A stretch of 55,941 bases of DNA from a virus. Taxonomy: Duplodnaviria; Caudoviricetes. Under the pieces are notes generated by a model. The model did not search any database, was not told the DNA's origin, and saw nothing but the letters and a program-made list of their open reading frames with translations. The translations under genes and the position numbers were made by a program. This document shows positions 8,042-48,053 of the stretch, piece after piece (position 1 is the stretch's first letter; the number at the start of each line of letters is the position of its first letter). The stretch spans positions 1 through 55,941 of the IMG/VR virus record IMGVR_UViG_3300036715_003593. One strand, given 5' to 3'.

Positions 8042-8473
8042 ATGTCTAAAACCGTAACAATGATCCTAGCTACTAAAGTAATTATTACTGACAATGGGCA
8101 CGTTCCTCATTCCTTTGGTCCTGGCATTTGCGAAGTGCCAGCTGAGTTTGCTGATCATTGGTATATGAAGGCTCATGGCGCGGTAAAGTATGACCCCGCT
8201 GCTAAAGCTGCTGAACTGTTGAAAGAAGCTGCAGCACTTGAAGAAGCTGCCAAGATTGAAGCTGAGAAAGCTGCCAAGATTGAAGCTGAGAAAGATGCCA
8301 AGGTTGAAGCTGAGAAAGATGCCAAGGTTGAAGCTGAGAAAGATGCCAAGGTTGAAGCTGAGAAAGATGCAGCAGAAAAAATGGCTCCACTGTCAACAAG
8401 TACAACGCCGACAGTGGAAGCAACCTCAGCAACGGTTGCTGCACCTGCTTCTCAACCATGGGCAAAGAAGTAA
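8042..8473 (+). CDS. Head-associated hypothetical protein with EAEK(A/D)AK repeats
   Basis: ATG 8042 with ggag RBS; A.HWY..AH motif; directly downstream of MCP. Confidence 0.7.
   Translation: MSKTVTMILATKVIITDNGHVPHSFGPGICEVPAEFADHWYMKAHGAVKYDPAAKAAELLKEAAALEEAAKIEAEKAAKIEAEKDAKVEAEKDAKVEAEKDAKVEAEKDAAEKMAPLSTSTTPTVEATSATVAAPASQPWAKK
8249..8368 (+). repeat. Five tandem 24-bp repeats (gccaagRttgaagctgagaaagMt)
   Basis: Read directly from the sequence. Confidence 0.95.
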
Positions 8474-30440: not shown

Positions 30441-31026
30441 GTTTTACCAGCCTGATAATATTTCCATCTATTATTTTATCATATCCACGGTGCTTATGTT
30501 TATCACTTAGAACACTTTTGATCGCTTTAAAATAAGAACGATCCGGCAAGAAAACAGTTTTAAGGAAAGCATCTAAATCCTCAACTGTGCCACCTGAATC
30601 TTGAAAAAAGTCCAAGGTTATCTGTCGAATTGATCTTGGAGGATTTCCAGAAAAATACAACTCTCTGGATGCGAAATCTGCTTTCAATCTGTTGATGGCA
30701 CTTTCCGCTAACCCATATGTCATCTTCGGTAACAATCGTTGGTATTGGTCAGGGGCATCTGAAAAATAATCATCCGATCCAAACCAGTAACCTGAGCCTT
30801 CTGGATATTCTCCGAGCAATCTGTTTTGTGCCCGATGATCATAAATCTCGATTTGAGTTTCGGGAAGAATGAAACCGTAGACAGCTGACCGAATCCATAA
30901 AGTAAAACCCTGAATAGCGGCCAGCTCATCCAAATGTCGAAACATCTTCGAACCTGAATAAATTTCCCGAGCTGTGCTACCCTCAATTTTTGTTTTGGGG
31001 CAGGTTATAAGTAGATTGGGTTTCAT
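30427..31026 (-). CDS. DUF6884/YaaA-like protein
   Basis: ITC.K.K...AREIY.G..F...W.RSA.YG.I.P...I..YD pattern. Confidence 0.55.
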   Translation of the reverse strand: MKPNLLITCPKTKIEGSTAREIYSGSKMFRHLDELAAIQGFTLWIRSAVYGFILPETQIEIYDHRAQNRLLGEYPEGSGYWFGSDDYFSDAPDQYQRLLPKMTYGLAESAINRLKADFASRELYFSGNPPRSIRQITLDFFQDSGGTVEDLDAFLKTVFLPDRSYFKAIKSVLSDKHKHRGYDKIIDGNIIRLVKHETL

Positions 31027-31940
31027 TTACGCTTCGGTATCAACGACATGAACTCTGCGCGAGTTGCTGCCTCAGCCATGAAGAGACCTCGCATCGAAGA
31101 TGTTGTGGTCATTGTGCCATGCACACGAGCACCGCGAGAGCTCATACAAGTATGTTCACATTGAACTACTACAGCTACCCCTCGCGCTTCCAGATGCTCT
31201 GCCAAGGCATCTGCGATTTGATTAGTCAAACGTTCCTGAACCTGAAGGCGGTGGCTGAATGCCTTTACCAACTTTGGTATCTTGGATAGACCAACAATGC
31301 GACCATTTGGTATGTACGCAACATGGGCAACTCCGTGGAAACGAGCCATGTGGTGCTCACAGAAACTTTCCACAGGGATGCTATCGATAATAATCATCTC
31401 ATCACAACCTTCTGCACCGTCCGTGAAGGTCTTGAACAAGCCAGCGATGTCGGTGGTATAACCATCGAACCATTCCTGATATGCCTTGGCTACTCGCTTC
31501 GGGGTTTCTAGTAAGCCTTCACGGTTTGGATCCTCGCCGATGAACTGAAGCAGGCGACGAATATTGTCTTCGATGCTGCTTTCTGAATCGCCTTCCCAAG
31601 GAAACACCACCCAATCATATGCCTCTCTGTAAATCGGATCGGTCTTATCGATTAGAGCATAAAATGATTTGCCTGGATACATATCGCAATAACGTTCCAT
31701 AGTTGCGCCGGAGTCAATAATGTCGTCGACAAAAATGTCCGCCTCTTCTGGGGTGAGCGCAATCCTGATGTCCAGGTGCGTATAGTTAGCAGCAGCTATC
31801 ACCGCATATAAAGCAGGTATACCACCTCGAGGAATTGCGTAAGCTCGAATATGATCTTTGCCATTCATCTGGATCTTGCTGGCAACGATTACCGCTAGAT
31901 CCATAATATCGTTGTGGTTTAAAATTGTTTTTGCGGACAT
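31023..31940 (-). CDS. folE: GTP cyclohydrolase I fused to an N-terminal purine phosphoribosyltransferase-like domain
   Basis: REGL.ETP.RV, S.CEHH, GLSK, QVQERLT, H.CM..RG; N-terminal IPRGG, VDDIIDSGAT, WVVFPWE. Confidence 0.9.
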   Translation of the reverse strand: MSAKTILNHNDIMDLAVIVASKIQMNGKDHIRAYAIPRGGIPALYAVIAAANYTHLDIRIALTPEEADIFVDDIIDSGATMERYCDMYPGKSFYALIDKTDPIYREAYDWVVFPWEGDSESSIEDNIRRLLQFIGEDPNREGLLETPKRVAKAYQEWFDGYTTDIAGLFKTFTDGAEGCDEMIIIDSIPVESFCEHHMARFHGVAHVAYIPNGRIVGLSKIPKLVKAFSHRLQVQERLTNQIADALAEHLEARGVAVVVQCEHTCMSSRGARVHGTMTTTSSMRGLFMAEAATRAEFMSLIPKRK

Positions 31941-31942
31941 GG

Positions 31943-32368
31943 TTATTCCTTTATAAATGATGCTGCACATTTGCGAGTTTCTTCGAATCGCACCGAGATA
32001 AGAACTGCCCCTGTTCCAGCCAATTGAACTGGTCCAACCACTTCGACCAAATACTTGGCGAGATTTTCTGCGGTAGGATTGAAAGGGACTATTACTGTCC
32101 CGACCGGATCGATCTCCGGCAAGGTCTTTGACCATGGATCATTCTCCCACAAAAGGAATTTATGATCCCAGTTATCTTCGAGCCATTGAGCCAGCAACGT
32201 TTTCATCACCGAAAAGTCAAGAACCCGCCCTACTGAATCCAAACCATCGGAAGTAATTGTAAAATGAACACGGCCGTTATGACCATGCATCATGCTGCAT
32301 TTTGATTCGTGTTGGTATACCCGATGACCGTACGAAAAGTCATGATATCTATCTGCGGTGAAAGTCAT
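31943..32368 (-). CDS. queD: 6-carboxytetrahydropterin synthase
   Basis: GHR...KC..MHGHN, DF, WDH, PTAENLA, EET motifs. Confidence 0.9.
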   Translation of the reverse strand: MTFTADRYHDFSYGHRVYQHESKCSMMHGHNGRVHFTITSDGLDSVGRVLDFSVMKTLLAQWLEDNWDHKFLLWENDPWSKTLPEIDPVGTVIVPFNPTAENLAKYLVEVVGPVQLAGTGAVLISVRFEETRKCAASFIKE

Positions 32369-33138
32369 GCTAATACTCCTTTGCGATATGAATCATAGTT
32401 GGAAGATAAAGGGAGATTCATCAAACCCTCAGTGTGTGCGCGCAGCACCAACGGATCAGGCTGACCAGCATCCTCAAATCCTTTGGCGCGCAGCACATTG
32501 GCATGATTCATGTCGGTGGGAGGATACTTGCCATCGTAACTTGTATGAGAATAGGCTAGTGCTTCCCAGCAGCCGGGCAATGAGCGCGCCATGTCCACAG
32601 TTTCAGCTTTCGATAAATTCATCAGTGGGGTATGGATAAAGATTTCAGGAGTTCCCCTGTGGTCATGGCCAAGGGCGGTATTGATATATTGCTCAGTAGT
32701 ATAAATGAAGTTTGGGCGACAATCATCGTAGTTAGCACCGTCCATTTGGCACACGCCGGTCATAAGATTAGGAATGCCAAGAGCTTCAGCCCGGTTGGCT
32801 GCGATCGTCAAAAAAAGAGCGTTGCGCATTGGCACAAAAGTCAGCTCTCTGCGATTGCCGATTTTGTTACCCATCTGTTCAGCGTTCTCATATTGCTCCA
32901 AACTTGAATTGCTGGTTAAAGGAGACATGGAGATCAAGCAATTCGGAACCTCGACAATTTCATGGGAGGATACGTTAGCCAGCTGTGCCACCTTTATTGC
33001 AGCCTCAATTTCGATAGCATGGCGCTGGCCATAATCAAAAGTGATGGCATGCACTTCAGAGTACTGTTGCTTTGCCAAAAAGAGGCAAGTGGTTGAATCC
33101 TGCCCTCCCGATAAGACAACTAAAACCTTTGTTTTCAT
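32365..33138 (-). CDS. queC: 7-cyano-7-deazaguanine synthase
   Basis: LSGGQDSTT, FDYGQRH, FVP.RN, Y.DCR, TPL..LSKA motifs; canonical C-terminal Zn cysteine cluster appears altered. Confidence 0.88.
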   Translation of the reverse strand: MKTKVLVVLSGGQDSTTCLFLAKQQYSEVHAITFDYGQRHAIEIEAAIKVAQLANVSSHEIVEVPNCLISMSPLTSNSSLEQYENAEQMGNKIGNRRELTFVPMRNALFLTIAANRAEALGIPNLMTGVCQMDGANYDDCRPNFIYTTEQYINTALGHDHRGTPEIFIHTPLMNLSKAETVDMARSLPGCWEALAYSHTSYDGKYPPTDMNHANVLRAKGFEDAGQPDPLVLRAHTEGLMNLPLSSNYDSYRKGVLA

Positions 33139-33139
33139 T

Positions 33140-33847
33140 TCATTCGACTCCTATGATTTTGTGAACTTGTAATTGTAAAAGGTAACCATATTTTAACACA
33201 CTTTCTGTTATTGCCTTTAGATTAGATAGATTCTTTTCATCATCTTGCTCATCGGCAGGTTGCAGATAAATCGGACCATCAAATCCTGCCGGTGGGCGTG
33301 CGAGGCGAGGGTTTGCGGGGTGATCGAGTGCTGACAGGGGTAATCCATCATCCTCTGCTAAGTCTCCCGCTTTGCCCACGTATTTAAGGGCGGAGATATA
33401 CGGTGCCAAGTTTTTATTAATTGTGCCAGTCTTTGGACTACAAACCACTGTGATTCCATCATAAGGCAAATCGCGATATAATGATCCATTGGTTTCAATT
33501 TGAACGTCGAAGTTGAATTCCAATAAAATGGAAACGGTTGGTTTAACGTTTTGCCGAAGGGGCTCCCCGCCAGTGATTACCACTAACTGTCTTTCCTGAC
33601 CAGGCTCCCAATCTTCCGGCAAAAGAGAATTGACTTCTTCCAACAGTTGACGGGGGGAAAGCCAAACACGCTCCGAGGTATAATTTGTATCACAAAGAGG
33701 GCAAGCCAAGTTACAGCCAGCTAGACGGATGAAAACTGCTCGCCTGCCAGTAAAAGGACCTTCTCCTTGAATGGTATTGAAAACACTATGGACTGCTAAA
33801 ATTCCAGAGTCATCGTGAGTGGATTTTTCTATTTTTTGCGTATTCAT
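33140..33847 (-). CDS. queE: 7-carboxy-7-deazaguanine synthase (radical SAM)
   Basis: TIQGEG, CNLAC..CDT, ITGGEP, IETNG, SPK, LQVHK motifs. Confidence 0.92.
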   Translation of the reverse strand: MNTQKIEKSTHDDSGILAVHSVFNTIQGEGPFTGRRAVFIRLAGCNLACPLCDTNYTSERVWLSPRQLLEEVNSLLPEDWEPGQERQLVVITGGEPLRQNVKPTVSILLEFNFDVQIETNGSLYRDLPYDGITVVCSPKTGTINKNLAPYISALKYVGKAGDLAEDDGLPLSALDHPANPRLARPPAGFDGPIYLQPADEQDDEKNLSNLKAITESVLKYGYLLQLQVHKIIGVE

Positions 33848-33868
33848 AAGATCTCCGTAGGTGTATCC

Positions 33869-33896
33869 ATTATAACACAATCTCCTTGGTACCCAA
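33869..33896 (-). promoter_or_regulatory. Extended -10 sigma70-like promoter for the que/dpd operon
   Basis: TGTGTTATAAT on the - strand just upstream of the queE RBS. Confidence 0.5.
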
Positions 33897-33916
33897 TGAG
33901 ATCAATGAACCCTTTA

Positions 33917-33944
33917 TAAAAAGAGACCGCCACATGGCGGTCTT
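33917..33944 (-). terminator. Intrinsic terminator
   Basis: - strand agaccgcc-atgt-ggcggtct followed by cttttt. Confidence 0.8.
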
Positions 33945-33945
33945 A

Positions 33946-34437
33946 AAGTGCAGCAGCAAATTGAAGTTGATGTTTCGACAGTTGTTCAACTCCCCGATAT
34001 TTCAAAAGACCTTCGGCGCTATCTTGCGATATGAAAGGACGCTTGCGTCTTTGCCCTCGGGGTGAGCGGGGCTACCTGAGTCTTTCCTACTCCAGAGCGT
34101 CCTCCGGATTAATGGGGTTTTCGATCCCCCGCAGATTTGACACCACGTCAGGCACTTGAAACACCAACAGGTCGGAAACGCTTTAATCAGCACGCTGAGT
34201 GCTACTGACATCCTTTGGATAGTCTTCGCTATCAAACGTTCCCGCCTCTTGGTGCTACTTTTGAAGACCTTCCTGTTTCATTTAAGCTGCCCTGAAGCTC
34301 ATCTGCTTAAAACGCATTCCATATAGGTGCTAGTTCCAAGTTCTATTGCTGCGGAGGAATCACTTAATCTATACACAGGGAGGTCTTCAAAAGGGACTGG
34401 CCGAAACCAATCCCACCTCAACAACCACGTCGAAGGT
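33946..34437 (-). ncRNA. Putative large structured non-coding RNA
   Basis: No convincing ORF; nested long stems (34258-34276/34375-34393; 34162-34184/34234-34254; 34036-34043/34096-34103); UUCG and GCAA tetraloops and G-U pairs mostly favour the - strand. Confidence 0.55.
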
Positions 34438-34438
34438 A

Positions 34439-34783
34439 TTACTGTGCCGGTACTGCTTCAGCTGCCGGTACTGCTTCGGCCTTAGCTTTTTTAGCCTTTG
34501 GCTCTTTTGGTGCCTTTGGTGCCTTTGGTGCAGCCACGATACCGTGGAACTTGCACCAGCGACCAAACTGAGTTGCAGCAGTGGTAATGTTGATACCTTC
34601 GGCTTCAGCTTTGCTCAACACTTCTGCGCGCTTGGCAGGTGCGCCAGCTGTTGCAGAAATTTCATCCGCAATTACCCAGATACGTTCTGTGGCAGTACCT
34701 TTGCCAGGACGGGATACACCATTTTGTTCGATTTTTGGTGCCTTAGGTTCTTTTACTTCAGGTGCTGTGGCGGTTTGTGTCAT
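34439..34783 (-). CDS. Small basic protein with the W.IAD...GIN..TA.TQF..W domain and a PKAPK tail
   Basis: Strong aaggag RBS; paralogous to the two upstream genes. Confidence 0.8.
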   Translation of the reverse strand: MTQTATAPEVKEPKAPKIEQNGVSRPGKGTATERIWVIADEISATAGAPAKRAEVLSKAEAEGINITTAATQFGRWCKFHGIVAAPKAPKAPKEPKAKKAKAEAVPAAEAVPAQ

Positions 34784-34841
34784 GTTGAAACTCCTTATTT
34801 ATTGTTTATGAAATATCGTTTTTGCTTACTACGGATTGGAT

Positions 34842-34868
34842 ATTATAGACCTACCTAACAAAGGTCAA
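34842..34868 (-). promoter_or_regulatory. Possible promoter TTGACC-15-TATAAT with an internal GACCT/AGGTC inverted repeat
   Basis: Read directly; spacing is suboptimal. Confidence 0.35.
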
Positions 34869-34886: not shown

Positions 34887-35489
34887 TTAGATCCCAGTGA
34901 TAGTTTTCTTCCACTTGGCGAATTGTGTAGCAGCCGTGGCAGAATTGATTCCAGTTGCTGCACATTCTTCCATCACTAATTTACGATCAGGCATACTGTT
35001 ACCTGCTGCCTGATAAAGCCGGTCTGCAATTTCCCAGACTTGACCGGTGACACCTTTTGCTTTTGGTCGCTCTGCTTGCGGAGCAGGAATCCGACCTCCT
35101 TCAGTTGAACTGGGAGGAGGTACGGAGCCTGAATCGTTTATGGCAAGGGATGTCCACAATTCCGCTACTTTCGCAATCAGGTCATCTAGCGACTCAGTAT
35201 CGGTCTGGAACTTCTTAGCCAACTCAAAACACCCTTGTGCAAGCTCGTGATAATCCTCTGGAGGGGTTTGACCGCCAGATAATTGATAATACAAATACTG
35301 AAGTTGTAATTTATAAAGTTTCGAGAAGCTGCGCCCTTCCAAAGGTGGGGCAATCACTTGACGACCGGCAGCTTTCAAAATATATCCGCGGTGTACTGCC
35401 CTGCGGATATCTGTTATATAAAGCAGTTTTATTTCCACAACATTGGTGACATCCAGAATCATATACCAGTAAACAGCAGCTGTGCTCAT
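34887..35489 (-). CDS. Hypothetical protein with a C-terminal W.IAD...GIN..TA.TQF..W domain
   Basis: VWEIAD...GINSATAATQFAKW. Confidence 0.75.
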   Translation of the reverse strand: MSTAAVYWYMILDVTNVVEIKLLYITDIRRAVHRGYILKAAGRQVIAPPLEGRSFSKLYKLQLQYLYYQLSGGQTPPEDYHELAQGCFELAKKFQTDTESLDDLIAKVAELWTSLAINDSGSVPPPSSTEGGRIPAPQAERPKAKGVTGQVWEIADRLYQAAGNSMPDRKLVMEECAATGINSATAATQFAKWKKTITGI

Positions 35490-35525: not shown

Positions 35526-36200
35526 TTATTTAGATTTGGCTTCATTAGCAAGACGGGTTGCTTCTTCTTCCTTGCAAACGCTTAACCATGCTTGATACTG
35601 GGTACGGGCAGTATAGTAAGCTATACCTTGTTTAACGCATTCTGCTAGAACTGCGCCGCGCTTAACCAGTGGGTTAGCAGCCTTCATATCTATTGCGATG
35701 CCCCATACGGTTTTGCAAGGATTTTCGATTGTGGAAACGTGGGTGATCGGTGTGCTGGATTTCTTGGCACTATGATTAAACGACCAATCACATTGGTGAC
35801 AACCACCAACCGTATCCTCGTTAATAATGCGACCCATACTGGCATTTGAATTTTCAGCTTCACCTTGATACAATTCAGTCGAACCGCATTTTGGGCAGCA
35901 AGCGTGACCTTCTTCATTTATTGCGAAGTCGTCCAAGTTAACTTCTTTTTTTGCAGCTTCCGCAGCTTCGAGGGCGGCGAGCAGGTCAAGGGCGGTTTTC
36001 TTAGCTGGAACTTGTTGATCAATTATTTCAAACTCGATTTCAGATTTGTTTTTAACTGATCCAGCTAATCCGGTTGCTTTAGCTTCGCGAGCTAACGTAC
36101 GACTTTTATAGCTACCGACAGCACAGTCTTCGTTGACAATAACCCATGAATCTGTTTCCAAGAGAAGGGCGAAAGCTGCTGTGATTTTAACTGTTTTCAT
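35526..36200 (-). CDS. Zn-ribbon protein with the same C-terminal paralogous domain
   Basis: CPKC...CHQC; VWGIA...GIAYYTARTQYQAW; aaggag RBS. Confidence 0.75.
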   Translation of the reverse strand: MKTVKITAAFALLLETDSWVIVNEDCAVGSYKSRTLAREAKATGLAGSVKNKSEIEFEIIDQQVPAKKTALDLLAALEAAEAAKKEVNLDDFAINEEGHACCPKCGSTELYQGEAENSNASMGRIINEDTVGGCHQCDWSFNHSAKKSSTPITHVSTIENPCKTVWGIAIDMKAANPLVKRGAVLAECVKQGIAYYTARTQYQAWLSVCKEEEATRLANEAKSK

Positions 36201-36259
36201 TTTGAAGCTCCTTATAATGTGGTTGTTGTATCGATCAGGTTCTCCCAATCGATGTACCC

Positions 36260-40118: not shown

Positions 40119-40958
40119 TTAAATGTCGCGATTGAAGTAATCCAAACCACTTGAATTATACACCTCATGAGCTAACGAATTCCACCCTCCAGTCTTTGGA
40201 ATTGAGATGTCATTGAGCATTCCATAGCGGTTGCCGGCAACAAAGCCAGGTGTTCTATTTACACCCAGAATGCGACCTTTGTTGGCAGAGATGCCCCTCA
40301 TTAAAGACTTGCCTTCCACTTCAGCTACAAATAAAGGCTCATGTAAGAAACCGATCAAGTCTGCCCACTGAGTCAACATTTCGCGCTTACCGTGAGTCTT
40401 TTGGTTCTTAGGGGAATGTAACAACAAGTCCCAAGTGTCGAACTCACCGAAAGCTGGATCCATAACCTTGGCAGCAAATACGTGACAGGTCAAGATGATG
40501 TTAATCCCGCCATGCGTGGCAAGCCAGTCACATTGTTGCAAGAAGCCATGGAAAAGCTCGTTGGAATATTGATAAGCCTTTCCATATCCCCCGAGTGCGC
40601 TTTCCATAGTTAGGGCTTTCTTGTTTCCTTTACCATAGGTCGGATCAGCTTGGAGCACTGCGTCATGGATCATACGCTCCAAAGCGGTGGCACTATCAAA
40701 TACCAACGTCTGGTAAGGGAACTCGCCCGTTTGAACCTTGGCAACGATCTCACCTAAAAGAATCATCAAGTCACCATATGTGGTCAACAATGGGGTCTTG
40801 TTAACTACAACGCCAGCAAAGCCCTGTTCGAGAGGTACCAGCAAGGCACGTGGAGCATTGCATGCCAAAGTGGTTTTACCCACTTTCTCAATACCAGAGA
40901 TGACGGCTCGAATGCCGACCTTCTGGTTACTGCTGTTTACATAGTCGAGAATTCCCAT
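40119..40958 (-). CDS. AAA_24/Sak4-like ATPase (recombination)
   Basis: G.EKVGKTT Walker A, TLVFDS, GYGK.Y, QWAD motifs. Confidence 0.8.
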   Translation of the reverse strand: MGILDYVNSSNQKVGIRAVISGIEKVGKTTLACNAPRALLVPLEQGFAGVVVNKTPLLTTYGDLMILLGEIVAKVQTGEFPYQTLVFDSATALERMIHDAVLQADPTYGKGNKKALTMESALGGYGKAYQYSNELFHGFLQQCDWLATHGGINIILTCHVFAAKVMDPAFGEFDTWDLLLHSPKNQKTHGKREMLTQWADLIGFLHEPLFVAEVEGKSLMRGISANKGRILGVNRTPGFVAGNRYGMLNDISIPKTGGWNSLAHEVYNSSGLDYFNRDI

Positions 40959-40960
40959 GA

Positions 40961-41197
40961 TTAACCTCCGACGAGGTCAAGAACTGCACAGTTGGTCATA
41001 ACACTATGGAGACCTGATTCCAACGCTGAACCAGCTTTTAAATAAGCATCTCTAGCCTCCATGAAATCGCGATCTGCTTGGATTTTAATATCCTGAGTAA
41101 TACGCAGGTTTTCAGCTGCCTGCTCACAACGGATTTGAAGAGCACCCAGATCCGTTGTGTTTGCTTTTGATACGGTCTTACGTTTCGATTTAGACAT
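40961..41197 (-). CDS. Hypothetical protein
   Basis: aaggag RBS; 78 aa. Confidence 0.6.
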   Translation of the reverse strand: MSKSKRKTVSKANTTDLGALQIRCEQAAENLRITQDIKIQADRDFMEARDAYLKAGSALESGLHSVMTNCAVLDLVGG

Positions 41198-41225
41198 CTT
41201 GTTTCTCCTTATTAAAGTTTACAAA

Positions 41226-41450
41226 TTAGAACGACCATGACCCCGACCATGACCGCGACCATGACCATGACCATGACTGTGACCCCGACAGTGACCATGA
41301 CCCCGACCGTGACCGCGACCGCGACCATGACCGCGACCGCGACCATGACCCCGACCGTGACCCCGACCGCGACAGTGACCCCGACAGTGACCCCGACAGT
41401 GACCCCGACAGTGACCGTGACCATTGTTCTCGCAACATAATGGCGTTCAT
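41226..41450 (-). CDS. Ser-X (X = R/W/G/L) dipeptide-repeat protein
   Basis: TAATG coupling to the upstream gene selects this frame; hexamer repeat NNG-TCR. Confidence 0.6.
   Translation of the reverse strand: MNAIMLREQWSRSLSGSLSGSLSGSLSRSGSRSGSWSRSRSWSRSRSRSGSWSLSGSQSWSWSWSRSWSGSWSF
41233..41422. repeat. Degenerate hexanucleotide repeat (about 30 units)
   Basis: gaccat/gaccgc/gacccc/gacagt units on the + strand. Confidence 0.95.
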
Positions 41451-46816: not shown

Positions 46817-47239
46817 ATGGCTAAAAGTTTCGCACAATCAAAAGGGGCTCGCGGCGAACGAGAGATTATAAACATACTACAACCCATTGTGGATAAAGTC
46901 TGTATCGAATGCGGGAAGGAACAAATTAGTCTGCTTCGAAATAGTTTACAATCTAGGCAGGGTGGCTACGACATGCTCGGGCTGGATTGGCTGGCGCTGG
47001 AAATAAAGAGATGTGAAACTTTGAACATCCCCGCATGGACTAGACAATGCCTTGAGCAAGCATCTAATCAGCAAGTACCTGTTCTAATCTATAAACAGAA
47101 CAATCGAGCTTGGAAAGTTATGATGCATGGACTATTGGTTCCAGGCGGATCAACTAACCTGAAAGTCTGGTGTGAAATTAGTGTAGAATCATTCCTGGCT
47201 TATTTCGAACTGAGATTAAAACATGAGGTGTGTAAATGA
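46817..47239 (+). CDS. PD-(D/E)XK nuclease, Holliday junction resolvase-like
   Basis: KG.RGERE, G.D, EIKR.E, W..Q motifs. Confidence 0.75.
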   Translation: MAKSFAQSKGARGEREIINILQPIVDKVCIECGKEQISLLRNSLQSRQGGYDMLGLDWLALEIKRCETLNIPAWTRQCLEQASNQQVPVLIYKQNNRAWKVMMHGLLVPGGSTNLKVWCEISVESFLAYFELRLKHEVCK

Positions 47240-47433
47240 GTAGCGCTGATCCAATAGATCAAGGATGTGAACACGAACAACAAGATCGGGATGCTGGTAT
47301 TGAGGAAGTTCGGAAACTGGCTGCAGCTTTCGAAAAAGGAGAACCTGGAATCTGTATCCATTGTGGTTATGACTTCATTCGCTTGGTCAGAGGTCGGTGC
47401 GGTAAGTGCAGAGATGAATTGGGGTTACCTTGA
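47236..47433 (+). CDS. TraR/DksA-like Zn-finger protein
   Basis: D.ID...E N-terminus, CxxC...CxxC. Confidence 0.55.
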   Translation: MSSADPIDQGCEHEQQDRDAGIEEVRKLAAAFEKGEPGICIHCGYDFIRLVRGRCGKCRDELGLP

Positions 47434-47639
47434 AACTGAGGATTGTTAATCTGCCAGACCATTCTACTTTGGTTTATCTGGAGCAGAAGGCCAACGGAAA
47501 AATATATGCCCTCCAGATCATATCCACTTGGGCAGAGCAGCGTAACTGCATAAACGGGTGGCGAAAGTTAATTTATGATCATATCCGCCAGGGTCGTCGT
47601 TACATCAGAAGGAGTATTGAAAATGATAGCAAAGATTAA
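47430..47639 (+). CDS. Hypothetical protein
   Basis: TTGA overlap; part of a gene chain. Confidence 0.45.
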   Translation: MKLRIVNLPDHSTLVYLEQKANGKIYALQIISTWAEQRNCINGWRKLIYDHIRQGRRYIRRSIENDSKD

Positions 47640-47844
47640 ACAATGGTTCAAAGATGCAGATGAAAAAGATCTCGCTCGGCTCAAGAGAAGTGGTTATAAT
47701 TATGCAGCCGGTAGATTGTTGAAGGAGGGTAATGCAGCTATTACCCCTTTGTGTTATGAATCGGATAACCCTTTCGATGGAAACGAATTCGATATCGGTA
47801 TAGTGGAAGCGTTGCTGGATTTTGAGAGGCGGGGTAAGAAATGA
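47623..47844 (+). CDS. Hypothetical protein
   Basis: aaggag RBS; GY.YAAG.LL...FD.G. Confidence 0.6.
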   Translation: MIAKIKQWFKDADEKDLARLKRSGYNYAAGRLLKEGNAAITPLCYESDNPFDGNEFDIGIVEALLDFERRGKK

Positions 47845-48053
47845 ATCTTAATGGTTGCCATAACAGACCACACTTGAAACATTTCGCAACTGTTCAAATT
47901 GGATGGATACCTAGCTTGCATCCTATCCAGACTCGGTACCCGCTTTTGAAATCGATCCCCGACCCCATGTCGAAGGATTGCCAGTATCAGAAGCTGAGGA
48001 AAGACGATCCGAAGTGTGCTGGATGCAAACATTTAGTGGAGGAAGTGAAATGA
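47841..48053 (+). CDS. Small Cys-rich hypothetical protein
   Basis: GCHNRP...MS.DCQY...D..C.GC. Confidence 0.6.
   Translation: MNLNGCHNRPHLKHFATVQIGWIPSLHPIQTRYPLLKSIPDPMSKDCQYQKLRKDDPKCAGCKHLVEEVK

Follow-up and report, generated by a model that had tools for sequence, protein, structure and literature searches.

The locus between the 114-aa gene and queE

The window analyzed here is the whole 55,941-nt stretch of IMG/VR record IMGVR_UViG_3300036715_003593, a complete virus record (55,941 bp) from the Caudoviricetes. Its minus strand carries a gap running from the stop codon of a 114-aa gene to queE, in which the original prediction, made from the sequence alone, had placed a highly structured noncoding RNA (ncRNA) at positions 33946–34437. 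The gap sits in a minus-strand block of early, replication, and nucleotide-metabolism genes, which contains a helicase, a Cas4-like exonuclease, three small paralogous genes, and then queE, queC, and further 7-deazaguanine synthesis genes. The phage is distant from cultured phages: the identity of its QueE reaches at most 54% with any phage record and 51% with Seuratvirus phages (Queuovirinae), and that of its terminase at most 48.5%. By their similarities, terminase and QueE point toward the Proteobacteria as hosts. The features of the locus are listed below; L009, L010, and L013 are the relatives described in the next section, and H0 to H3 are the domains lying upstream of or extending from the conserved core.

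34840–34868, minus strand: promoter-like site TTGACC-17-TAATAT upstream of the 114-aa gene, 9 of 12 matches
34439–34783, minus strand: 114-aa gene, the upstream neighbor, matching phrog_18634 (7.6e-20), a PHROG of unknown function; Lys/Pro/Ala-rich tail
34415–34437, minus strand: H0, a tentative small hairpin just past the stop codon; loop region GUGGUUGU common to the window, L009, and L013
34389–34414, minus strand: H1, a UUCG hairpin of 9 bp followed by UUUU, terminator-like in appearance
34259–34392, minus strand: H2, a long stem of 12+5 bp with a variable 98-nt tip; lower stems of different sequence in the window, L009, and L013
34160–34256, minus strand: H3, a main stem of about 22 bp with a two-hairpin junction; its 5' base strand is seg2, AGCACCAA, 34256–34249
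33966–34168, minus strand: conserved core, modeled by RNAalifold as a four-way junction with 41 pairs in 7 helices
33918–33943, minus strand: intrinsic terminator, stem 33943–33924 (8 bp, 6 G-C, loop of 4), then CTTTTTATAA, a T-rich tail
33869–33896, minus strand: candidate queE-operon promoter TTGGGT-16-TGTTATAAT with an extended −10, read by eye; the promoter scan raised no flag there
33140–33847, minus strand: queE (7-carboxy-7-deazaguanine synthase-like), the downstream neighbor; phrog_2076, 5e-50

A 521-nt RNA covering this gap (33920–34440, minus strand) had a predicted minimum free energy (MFE) of −189.8 kcal/mol, compared with −156.2 ± 6.3 kcal/mol for 100 dinucleotide shuffles (z −5.32), none of which folded as well. 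Most of the individual structures described in the original prediction were located. The UUCG hairpin is present at 34414–34393 with 9 bp, the proposed stem of about 20 bp was found as one of about 22 bp (8+3+11; 34256–34234 with 34183–34160) that closes a two-hairpin junction, a GCAA loop lies at about 34027–34024, and the strong terminator was found at 33943–33924. The stem given as 19 bp is present, with 12+5 bp (34392–34375 with 34276–34259), and encloses 98 nt (34374–34277). The motif gaaggtctt, which had been taken as a possible alternative partner of the first arm, occurs at 34014–34006 and repeats the 3' arm of the long stem (in the region 34272–34264); it lies in a variable stretch and is not conserved.

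The RNA would be read from the minus strand as the 3' continuation of an early transcript carrying the 114-aa gene, and would end at the intrinsic terminator at 33943–33924. The start of this transcript is likely the site at 34840–34868, which should be taken as a lead only, as promoter-like sites in the region were no commoner than in shuffled sequences (4 found versus 5.1 expected). Downstream of the terminator, the queE operon probably has a separate promoter of its own at 33869–33896; the counterpart in L009, TTGAAT-16-TATAAT, was flagged by the promoter scan. The likely start of queE, read by eye from the sequence, is the ATG at 33847. L009 has a terminator at the corresponding place, and in L013 the RNA is followed by tRNA-like genes and then by a hairpin with a U run.

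A conserved and covarying RNA core

Relatives of the RNA were scarce. BLASTN of the region against 50,697 phage records gave no match. An index of public sequencing runs returned 13 runs, drawn from 11 studies, in which the stretch is present whole or in part; all of them are DNA and none is on record as RNA. Four of the 13 runs were aligned over a 2.4-kb stretch, with 40 of 238 substitutions listed, and runs X7 to X13, with shares of 0.04–0.07, do not enter the analysis. The aligned runs contain relatives at three levels of divergence: run X4 gave a 445-nt contig over 33999–34443 with 13 differences, run X5 gave pieces about 90% identical, and run X6 gave a 3,495-nt contig over 33989–35088 with 168 differences and 33 gaps. 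A 20-mer taken from the part best kept in X5 led to the JGI metagenome contigs L009 and L010, and an 18-mer led to the IMG/VR contig L013 and to L012, which is the same contig as L009. Three full-length relatives (L009, L010, and L013) were thus found, and the family stands at four full sequences from three public collections. The folds of these relatives were also better than those of shuffled sequences (z −4.63, −4.22, and −3.48), with none of 100 shuffles as good in each case.

Scans of IMG/VR with the 22-nt H1 hairpin and with a 20-mer reaching into a variable stem gave no matches, and three further IMG/VR patterns returned only the contigs named above and chance matches; four loci from the IMG/VR pattern scans (L011, L031, L034, and L037) were rejected as coding sequences matching by chance. 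Likewise, 15 loci obtained by scanning one genome for each of 185,579 species with the 18-mer were chance matches of 18–27 nt. A scan of JGI metagenome contigs anchored on the 114-aa protein produced 599 pattern matches, none of which was confirmed. A covariance model built from the core, R1, scored 177–210 bits on the four members (177 on the window), and its next best scores were 8 and 5.6 bits among 28 sources (152 kb), the latter being the best score among the 15 rejected loci. R1 found one copy in the record of L013 and nothing in the more distant related records G001 and G002 (both complete) and G003 (52% complete).

The gap does not appear to encode a protein, since no open reading frame (ORF) is conserved in frame among the four members. 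A 77-aa ORF in the window (34002–34235) and a 68-aa ORF in L010 differ in the frame in which they read the invariant block described below, the core of L009 and L013 is free of ORFs of 60 aa or more, and the 77-aa ORF has no PHROGs match. The original prediction had been unable to assign the RNA to a known family, and a search with Rfam 15 (4227 models) agreed: there were no matches at gathering thresholds across the whole window, none at E ≤ 10 over 33800–34600, and none at E ≤ 1 inside the RNA region of L009, L010, or L013. ARAGORN found no tRNA in the window or in the three relatives.

We compared the surroundings of the four copies. L009 and L013 are syntenic with the window, having homologues of a 200-aa gene and of the 114-aa gene, then the RNA, then queE. 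In L010 the RNA lies after a DNA methylase gene (PF01555, 5e-22) and before genes of 71 and 157 aa; none of these three proteins has a homologue in the window, L009, or L013 loci, and no que gene lies beside the RNA within the 1.9 kb of L010. A promoter-like site, TTGACA-17-TAGAGT (1331–1303, minus strand), is found at the end of the methylase gene directly upstream of the RNA, suggesting that in L010 the RNA is transcribed as a separate unit. The L013 RNA is directly followed by a tRNA-like gene (1325–1245, minus strand; Rfam tRNA, 46.7 bits) in which 18 nt stand where the model has its 9-nt anticodon-loop region and for which ARAGORN makes no call; a second T-arm-like element (1170–1153, minus strand) comes next, ahead of the hairpin with the U run. 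The 5' half of the core is 86–98% identical among L009, L010, and L013, with the flanking 114-aa gene and queE at 53–66%, and L013 and L010 share 97.9% identity over 97 nt of it despite their unrelated context. Identity of this half to the window is about 68%, because the window has an inserted hairpin; the identity of H3 is 53–69%.

These comparisons bear on two other explanations of the gap. One is that it is a protective or processing 3' untranslated region (UTR), whose structures only stabilize the early mRNA against 3' exonucleases or mark RNase sites. Such a role would suit the position of the RNA directly past a stop codon, with no promoter detected between the two in the window, and its many stable hairpins with a terminator at the end. 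Stabilizing hairpins, however, need neither a 29-nt invariant block nor a junction kept at the identities given above while the gene drifts to 53–66%, and the L010 RNA has an unrelated gene upstream and a promoter-like site in front of it. We consider the UTR explanation quite improbable.

The other is a catalytic or mobile RNA, either a self-cleaving ribozyme leaving the mRNA or an ORF-less intron-like element spreading between phages. The near-identity of the L013 and L010 core halves, in loci that have no related gene, fits horizontal spread, and the element is missing at the corresponding site from phages related to the window: where QueE or 114-aa proteins are related, no gap of this kind occurs there (spacers of 69 nt in Seurat, 52 in L003, 280 in L002, 87 in L005, and 162 in L006), and a BLAST search with the RNA of the records from which L002, L003, L005, and L006 come gave only chance matches of 17–21 nt. 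In opposition to this view, no ribozyme or intron model matched at E ≤ 10, no gene is interrupted, a repeat search found no direct repeats or iterons touching or flanking the RNA region, and no homing-endonuclease, transposase, or other mobility gene was present among the scanned neighbors. An intron of the 114-aa gene in particular was ruled out; the C-terminus of the protein is complete, as its homologues in L005 and L006 finish with the same type of tail and no exon is missing. A catalytic or mobile element is, in our judgment, very improbable.

A core of about 200 nt is common to all four members. Its elements, as modeled with RNAalifold from seg3 through seg4, are the following.

34141–34169, minus strand: invariant 29-nt block UGUUGGUGUUUCAAGUGCCUGACGUGGUG, identical in 4 of 4 members (alignment columns 94–122); contains seg3 (34168–34158)
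34168–34158 (seg3) with 33976–33966 (seg4), minus strand: closing helix, 11 bp (RNAalifold)
34154–34148 with 34079–34073, minus strand: P_b, with a 6-nt bulge, CGUGGU, at 34147–34142
34141–34139 with 34082–34080, minus strand: P_b2, continuing from P_b
34135–34131 with 34090–34086, minus strand: P_c, continuing into the GACG hairpin
34114–34130, minus strand: extra hairpin GGGG...CCCC in P_c, found in the window's lineage only; L009, L010, and L013 have about 22 gap columns here
34108–34091, minus strand: GACG-loop hairpin, the loop always GACG
34079–34065, minus strand: block TCAGGTAGCCCCGCT, conserved in all four members
34072–34053, minus strand: P_d, a small hairpin (RNAalifold)
34061–34053, minus strand: block CCCGAGGGC, conserved in all four members
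34049–34046 with 33980–33977, minus strand: P_e, stacking directly on the closing helix
33992–34000, minus strand: conserved AUAUCGGGG, in which UCGGGG could pair with CCCCGA (34062–34057) in the P_d loop
33976–33966, minus strand: seg4, the 3' element GAARCRYCAAC, conserved in all four members

A TATCGG block is likewise conserved in all four members. On this model the domain map of the original prediction has to be revised, the conserved part being the four-way junction closed by 34168–34158 with 33976–33966. A third domain had been thought to be closed by aggacgct and agcgtcct; both 8-mers are present (34103–34096 and 34043–34036), but the closure itself is not conserved, and it finds no support: it clashes with the covarying GACG-loop hairpin and has no counterpart in the relatives. 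The CCCCGA/UCGGGG pairing may tentatively be viewed as a pseudoknot: CCGA and UCGG are complementary in 4 of 4 members, the longer version has one mismatch in L013, and no covariation was seen. The CGUGGU bulge is complementary to seg2, seg4, or the GACG loop, again with no covariation.

Standard pairs occupy 161 of the 164 paired core cells, that is, each pair of the model in each member. Among the 41 pairs, 27 never vary, 8 show a one-sided change, and 6 show a two-sided change; the latter fall in P_b2, P_c, and P_e, with two in the GACG hairpin, one with four pair types. The covariation score of the core was 0.280, compared with 0.165 ± 0.028 for shuffled alignments, and none of 500 shuffles reached it. 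Structure is maintained across four independent sequences, with compensatory changes.

The same cells speak to the strand and to whether the element acts as RNA at all. A DNA-level element, such as a replication origin or a packaging or recombination site, might contain inverted repeats that mimic stems. The plus strand does fold better than its shuffles (MFE −170.0 kcal/mol, z −4.56), as inverted repeats would, and the region lies within a replication and nucleotide-metabolism block; the minus-strand fold is 20 kcal/mol more stable. However, G-U wobbles account for 28 of the 164 paired cells (hand tally) and would be A-C mismatches on the other strand, and several G-C to G-U to A-U changes make sense only in a minus-strand RNA. 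Because of these wobbles, we read the element as a minus-strand RNA rather than a DNA element or a plus-strand transcript. The lack of iterons and direct repeats, the tetraloop-like loops, and the terminator that frames the unit also argue against a DNA site, which we regard as scarcely credible.

Outside the core the RNA varies widely. The H0 stems differ among members (ACCU/AGGU, UGCC/GGCA, and CUCUC/GAGGG, read by eye). The H1 counterparts in L009 (2781–2764) and L013 (1776–1757) were flagged as terminator-like, and H1 of the window, which has only 4 U, was not; its U run pairs with AAAA to form the base of H2, so that termination at H1 and formation of H2 may compete. H2 is absent from L010, and one X5 contig joins 34271 to 34370, skipping exactly the 98 nt that H2 encloses. 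The main stem of H3 has 19–23 bp in each member's own fold, with unrelated distal sequences and one or two hairpins on top; H2 and H3 thus keep stems of 17–23 bp from unrelated sequences. The RNA is about 520 nt long in the window and about 300 nt in its minimal form, L010. Among the listed substitutions from runs X4 to X6, ten lie inside 33946–34437, and none of them breaks a pair of the model: five map to the extra hairpin or the linker of that hairpin, loops or linkers account for three, one converts G-U to G-C (34089), and one may add a pair (34305). The suggestion in the original prediction that the transcript is a precursor of several small RNAs found no support, as what is conserved is concentrated in a single integrated core and the 5' domains, which L010 lacks, are dispensable.

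Several observations concern the rest of the window. The gap had been described as the largest gene-free one, which is plausible: two other long regions lacking any ORF of 100 aa or more (40958–41450 and 47239–47978) were examined for comparison, and both are occupied by strings of small same-strand ORFs. A 6-nt unit, GACCNN, is tandemly repeated at 41203–41448 in at least 11 copies, within small minus-strand ORFs (41212–41424 and 41226–41450); the array may code for a repeat peptide of low complexity or may be a hypervariable repeat. Six tandem 24-nt units at 8215–8394 (plus strand) lie within a plus-strand gene and would encode a repeated 8-residue motif. Upstream of the RNA, the 114-, 200-, and 240-aa genes (34439–34783, 34887–35489, and 35526–36248, minus strand) have in common a C-terminal domain, W.IAD...GIN..TA.TQ[FY]..W; they match the PHROGs of unknown function phrog_18634 and phrog_7864, and the tail of the 114-aa protein bears KAPKAPK-type repeats. 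Downstream, 31023–33847 (minus strand) is a 7-deazaguanine synthesis cluster with queE and queC identified by profile matches, followed by queD- and folE-like ORFs, which suggests that the phage modifies its own DNA, as Queuovirinae do.

Competing helices and proposed mode of action

All four members have a seg3 that is complementary to seg2, at the base of H3, and also to seg4. The predicted duplexes have energies of −13.6 to −17.1 kcal/mol (seg2:seg3) and −15.2 to −19.2 kcal/mol (seg3:seg4). When either helix was forced, the constrained folds had the following energies (kcal/mol).

Window: seg3:seg4 forced, −164.1; seg2:seg3 forced, −172.4
L009: seg3:seg4 forced, −184.3; seg2:seg3 forced, −186.5
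L010: seg3:seg4 forced, −116.7; seg2:seg3 forced, −116.0
L013: seg3:seg4 forced, −164.7; seg2:seg3 forced, −165.5

The two forced states are thus 0.7–2.2 kcal/mol apart in three of the four members and 8.3 kcal/mol apart in the window. L010 has an additional strand upstream that pairs with seg2 (−17.6 kcal/mol), and its unconstrained fold then has a closed core, giving a layout of 1:2 plus 3:4 versus 2:3. No two-sided change was seen in seg2:seg3 or seg3:seg4. A double pairing duty would, as a hypothesis, explain why seg3 is invariant.

Mutually exclusive helices of this sort raise the question of a cis-acting switch (a riboswitch or attenuator), in which the core would sense a ligand or tRNA and the choice between seg2:seg3 and seg3:seg4 would set downstream termination, read-through, or processing, affecting the queE operon or, in L013, the tRNA-like genes. 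Besides the two conserved partners of seg3 with their near-equal predicted energies and the classic layout conferred by the extra strand of L010, this explanation can draw on the location of three of the four members just upstream of 7-deazaguanine synthesis genes and on L013, where by our own reading seg4 can also pair with a downstream strand overlapping the 5' end of the tRNA-like gene. Set against it are the strong terminator and, after it, the separate promoter that part the RNA from queE in the window and L009, a terminator stem that takes no part in the conserved alternative pairings, and L010, in which the RNA has no que gene beside it. Moreover, none of the riboswitch models, preQ1 included, gives a match, the core of about 200 nt and its 100–300 nt of decoration would make a very large aptamer, and the near-equal nearest-neighbor energies leave out tertiary contacts. 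We hold control in cis to be unlikely.

The explanation that we prefer, with moderate confidence, is that the gap is the gene for a stable, highly structured ncRNA of an undescribed family that acts in trans through its folded core. That this is a novel phage ncRNA, as originally predicted, is supported by the absence of an Rfam match and of a common ORF, by the covarying structure, and by a core kept well above its flanking genes. An action in trans is favored because the gene context varies, a terminator and separate promoter precede queE, and conservation is far above that of the neighbors; the RNA would be no regulator of the adjoining genes. The functional part would be the core of about 200 nt (34168–33966) with its long invariant single-stranded and bulge segments, and H0, H1, H2, and the tip of H3 would be variable or dispensable decoration. 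The folded core could offer a binding surface in trans for a conserved partner, which might be a protein, an RNA such as a tRNA, or the RNA's own copies. In L013 the end of the RNA is probably made by tRNA processing, the established role of RNase P. Because two pairings are open to seg3, one with seg2 that extends H3 and one with seg4 that closes the core, the RNA may pass through both folds or switch between them.

A more specific proposal can be made, which we put forward as possible but doubtful: the invariant 29-nt strand of this new class of large phage RNA would work as a two-state switch, pairing with seg2 or seg4, with the core closed only in one state and that state possibly favored by a partner (such as the end of a tRNA, a 7-deazapurine precursor, a protein of the host, or copies of the RNA). 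The RNA might then be a sensor or a self-assembling particle, and a self-contained module moving between unrelated phages.

A number of points weigh against a trans-acting RNA and the fold on which it depends. The structure was derived from the same alignment on which it is scored, which favors it in the control in which partners were slid by 1–3 columns and only 34–43% of cells paired. There are only four full sequences, three of them syntenic kin, so the pattern partly reflects shared descent, and the 27 invariant core pairs are uninformative either way. The closing helix has no two-sided change, and its three one-sided changes in seg4 are weak evidence because 10 of the 11 possible seg4 transitions would keep pairing (hand count). 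A terminator-like H1 precedes most of the RNA, and no sigma-70-like promoter was found after H1 in the window. Transcription and stability of the RNA are deduced from gene direction, terminators, and wobble pairs, and the choice of action in trans was made mainly from the differing gene context and the terminator and promoter before queE.

The RNA would add a tractable example to a small group, with a compact core of about 200 nt, an invariant 29-nt strand, a dispensable periphery, and competing helices open to mutagenesis. Support for its helices comes from compensatory changes in 6 of the 41 core pairs and from stems formed by unrelated sequence, and for the rest from conserved complementarity alone. 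A 7-deazaguanine phage lineage and an unrelated contig share an RNA module that is held tighter than their proteins, which implies strong selection for a function during infection. The covariance model R1 can be used to enlarge the family in public assemblies. We found no description of this RNA in the literature searched. PMC10690425 reports 10,006 candidate structured RNAs of viral origin; its readable supplements gave no match to a 13-nt motif from the core or to the two IMG/VR sample numbers, and three large files of that source, outside this search, may contain the motif.

Comparison with known RNAs

We compared the RNA with known systems that it resembles in one respect or another. ORF-less phage group I introns are of comparable size, have many GNRA-like or otherwise stable loops, and occur in phages, but this RNA interrupts no gene and matches no Rfam model at E ≤ 10, in a library expected to include the group I intron. 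The core also resembles tRNA in its four-helix topology, with a closing helix and three arms joined by linkers of 0–3 nt (our own comparison). Unlike tRNA, it gives no result with ARAGORN or the Rfam tRNA model, which matches only the separate downstream gene in L013; its closing helix has 11 bp rather than 7, and no T-loop or CCA is recognizable. Attenuators work by mutually exclusive helices, and the two conserved partners of seg3 with similar predicted energies, together with the arrangement in L010, recall that logic; here, however, the alternative helices exclude the terminator stem, a promoter precedes the next operon, and no aptamer family was matched.

The closest analogues in kind are GOLLD and ROOL, which are thought to work as trans-acting folded RNAs; both form oligomers, and ROOL forms a cage in cryo-EM. 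According to PMC12286853, GOLLD has a 3' region that is conserved and a 5' region that is less so, many examples exceed 800 nt, and an Rfam profile exists; the same source places ROOL and GOLLD near tRNAs and finds ROOL in a wide variety of phages and prophages. The RNA described here is, like GOLLD as it is portrayed there, phage-encoded, large, and ornate, with a conserved 3' core and H0 to H2 that vary or are absent, and one of its four members has a tRNA-like gene beside it. It differs from GOLLD in matching no Rfam model even at E ≤ 10, its sequence motifs being unrelated as far as the models tell, and in being about 300–550 nt long versus the more than 800 nt of many GOLLD RNAs in that account. 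With ROOL it shares a phage origin, a complex multi-domain fold with possible pseudoknots, a similar size class, and the lack of a known protein partner, and ROOL, according to PMC12286853, is often near tRNA islands; unlike ROOL, which is widespread by that account, this RNA is very rare, and it matches no model of the Rfam library. We view the RNA as a new family within a known kind, the large structured phage RNAs of unknown function. Large intricate ncRNAs are rare, and to our knowledge nearly every class that has been studied (RNase P, tmRNA, OLE, ROOL, and GOLLD) gave unexpected biochemistry.

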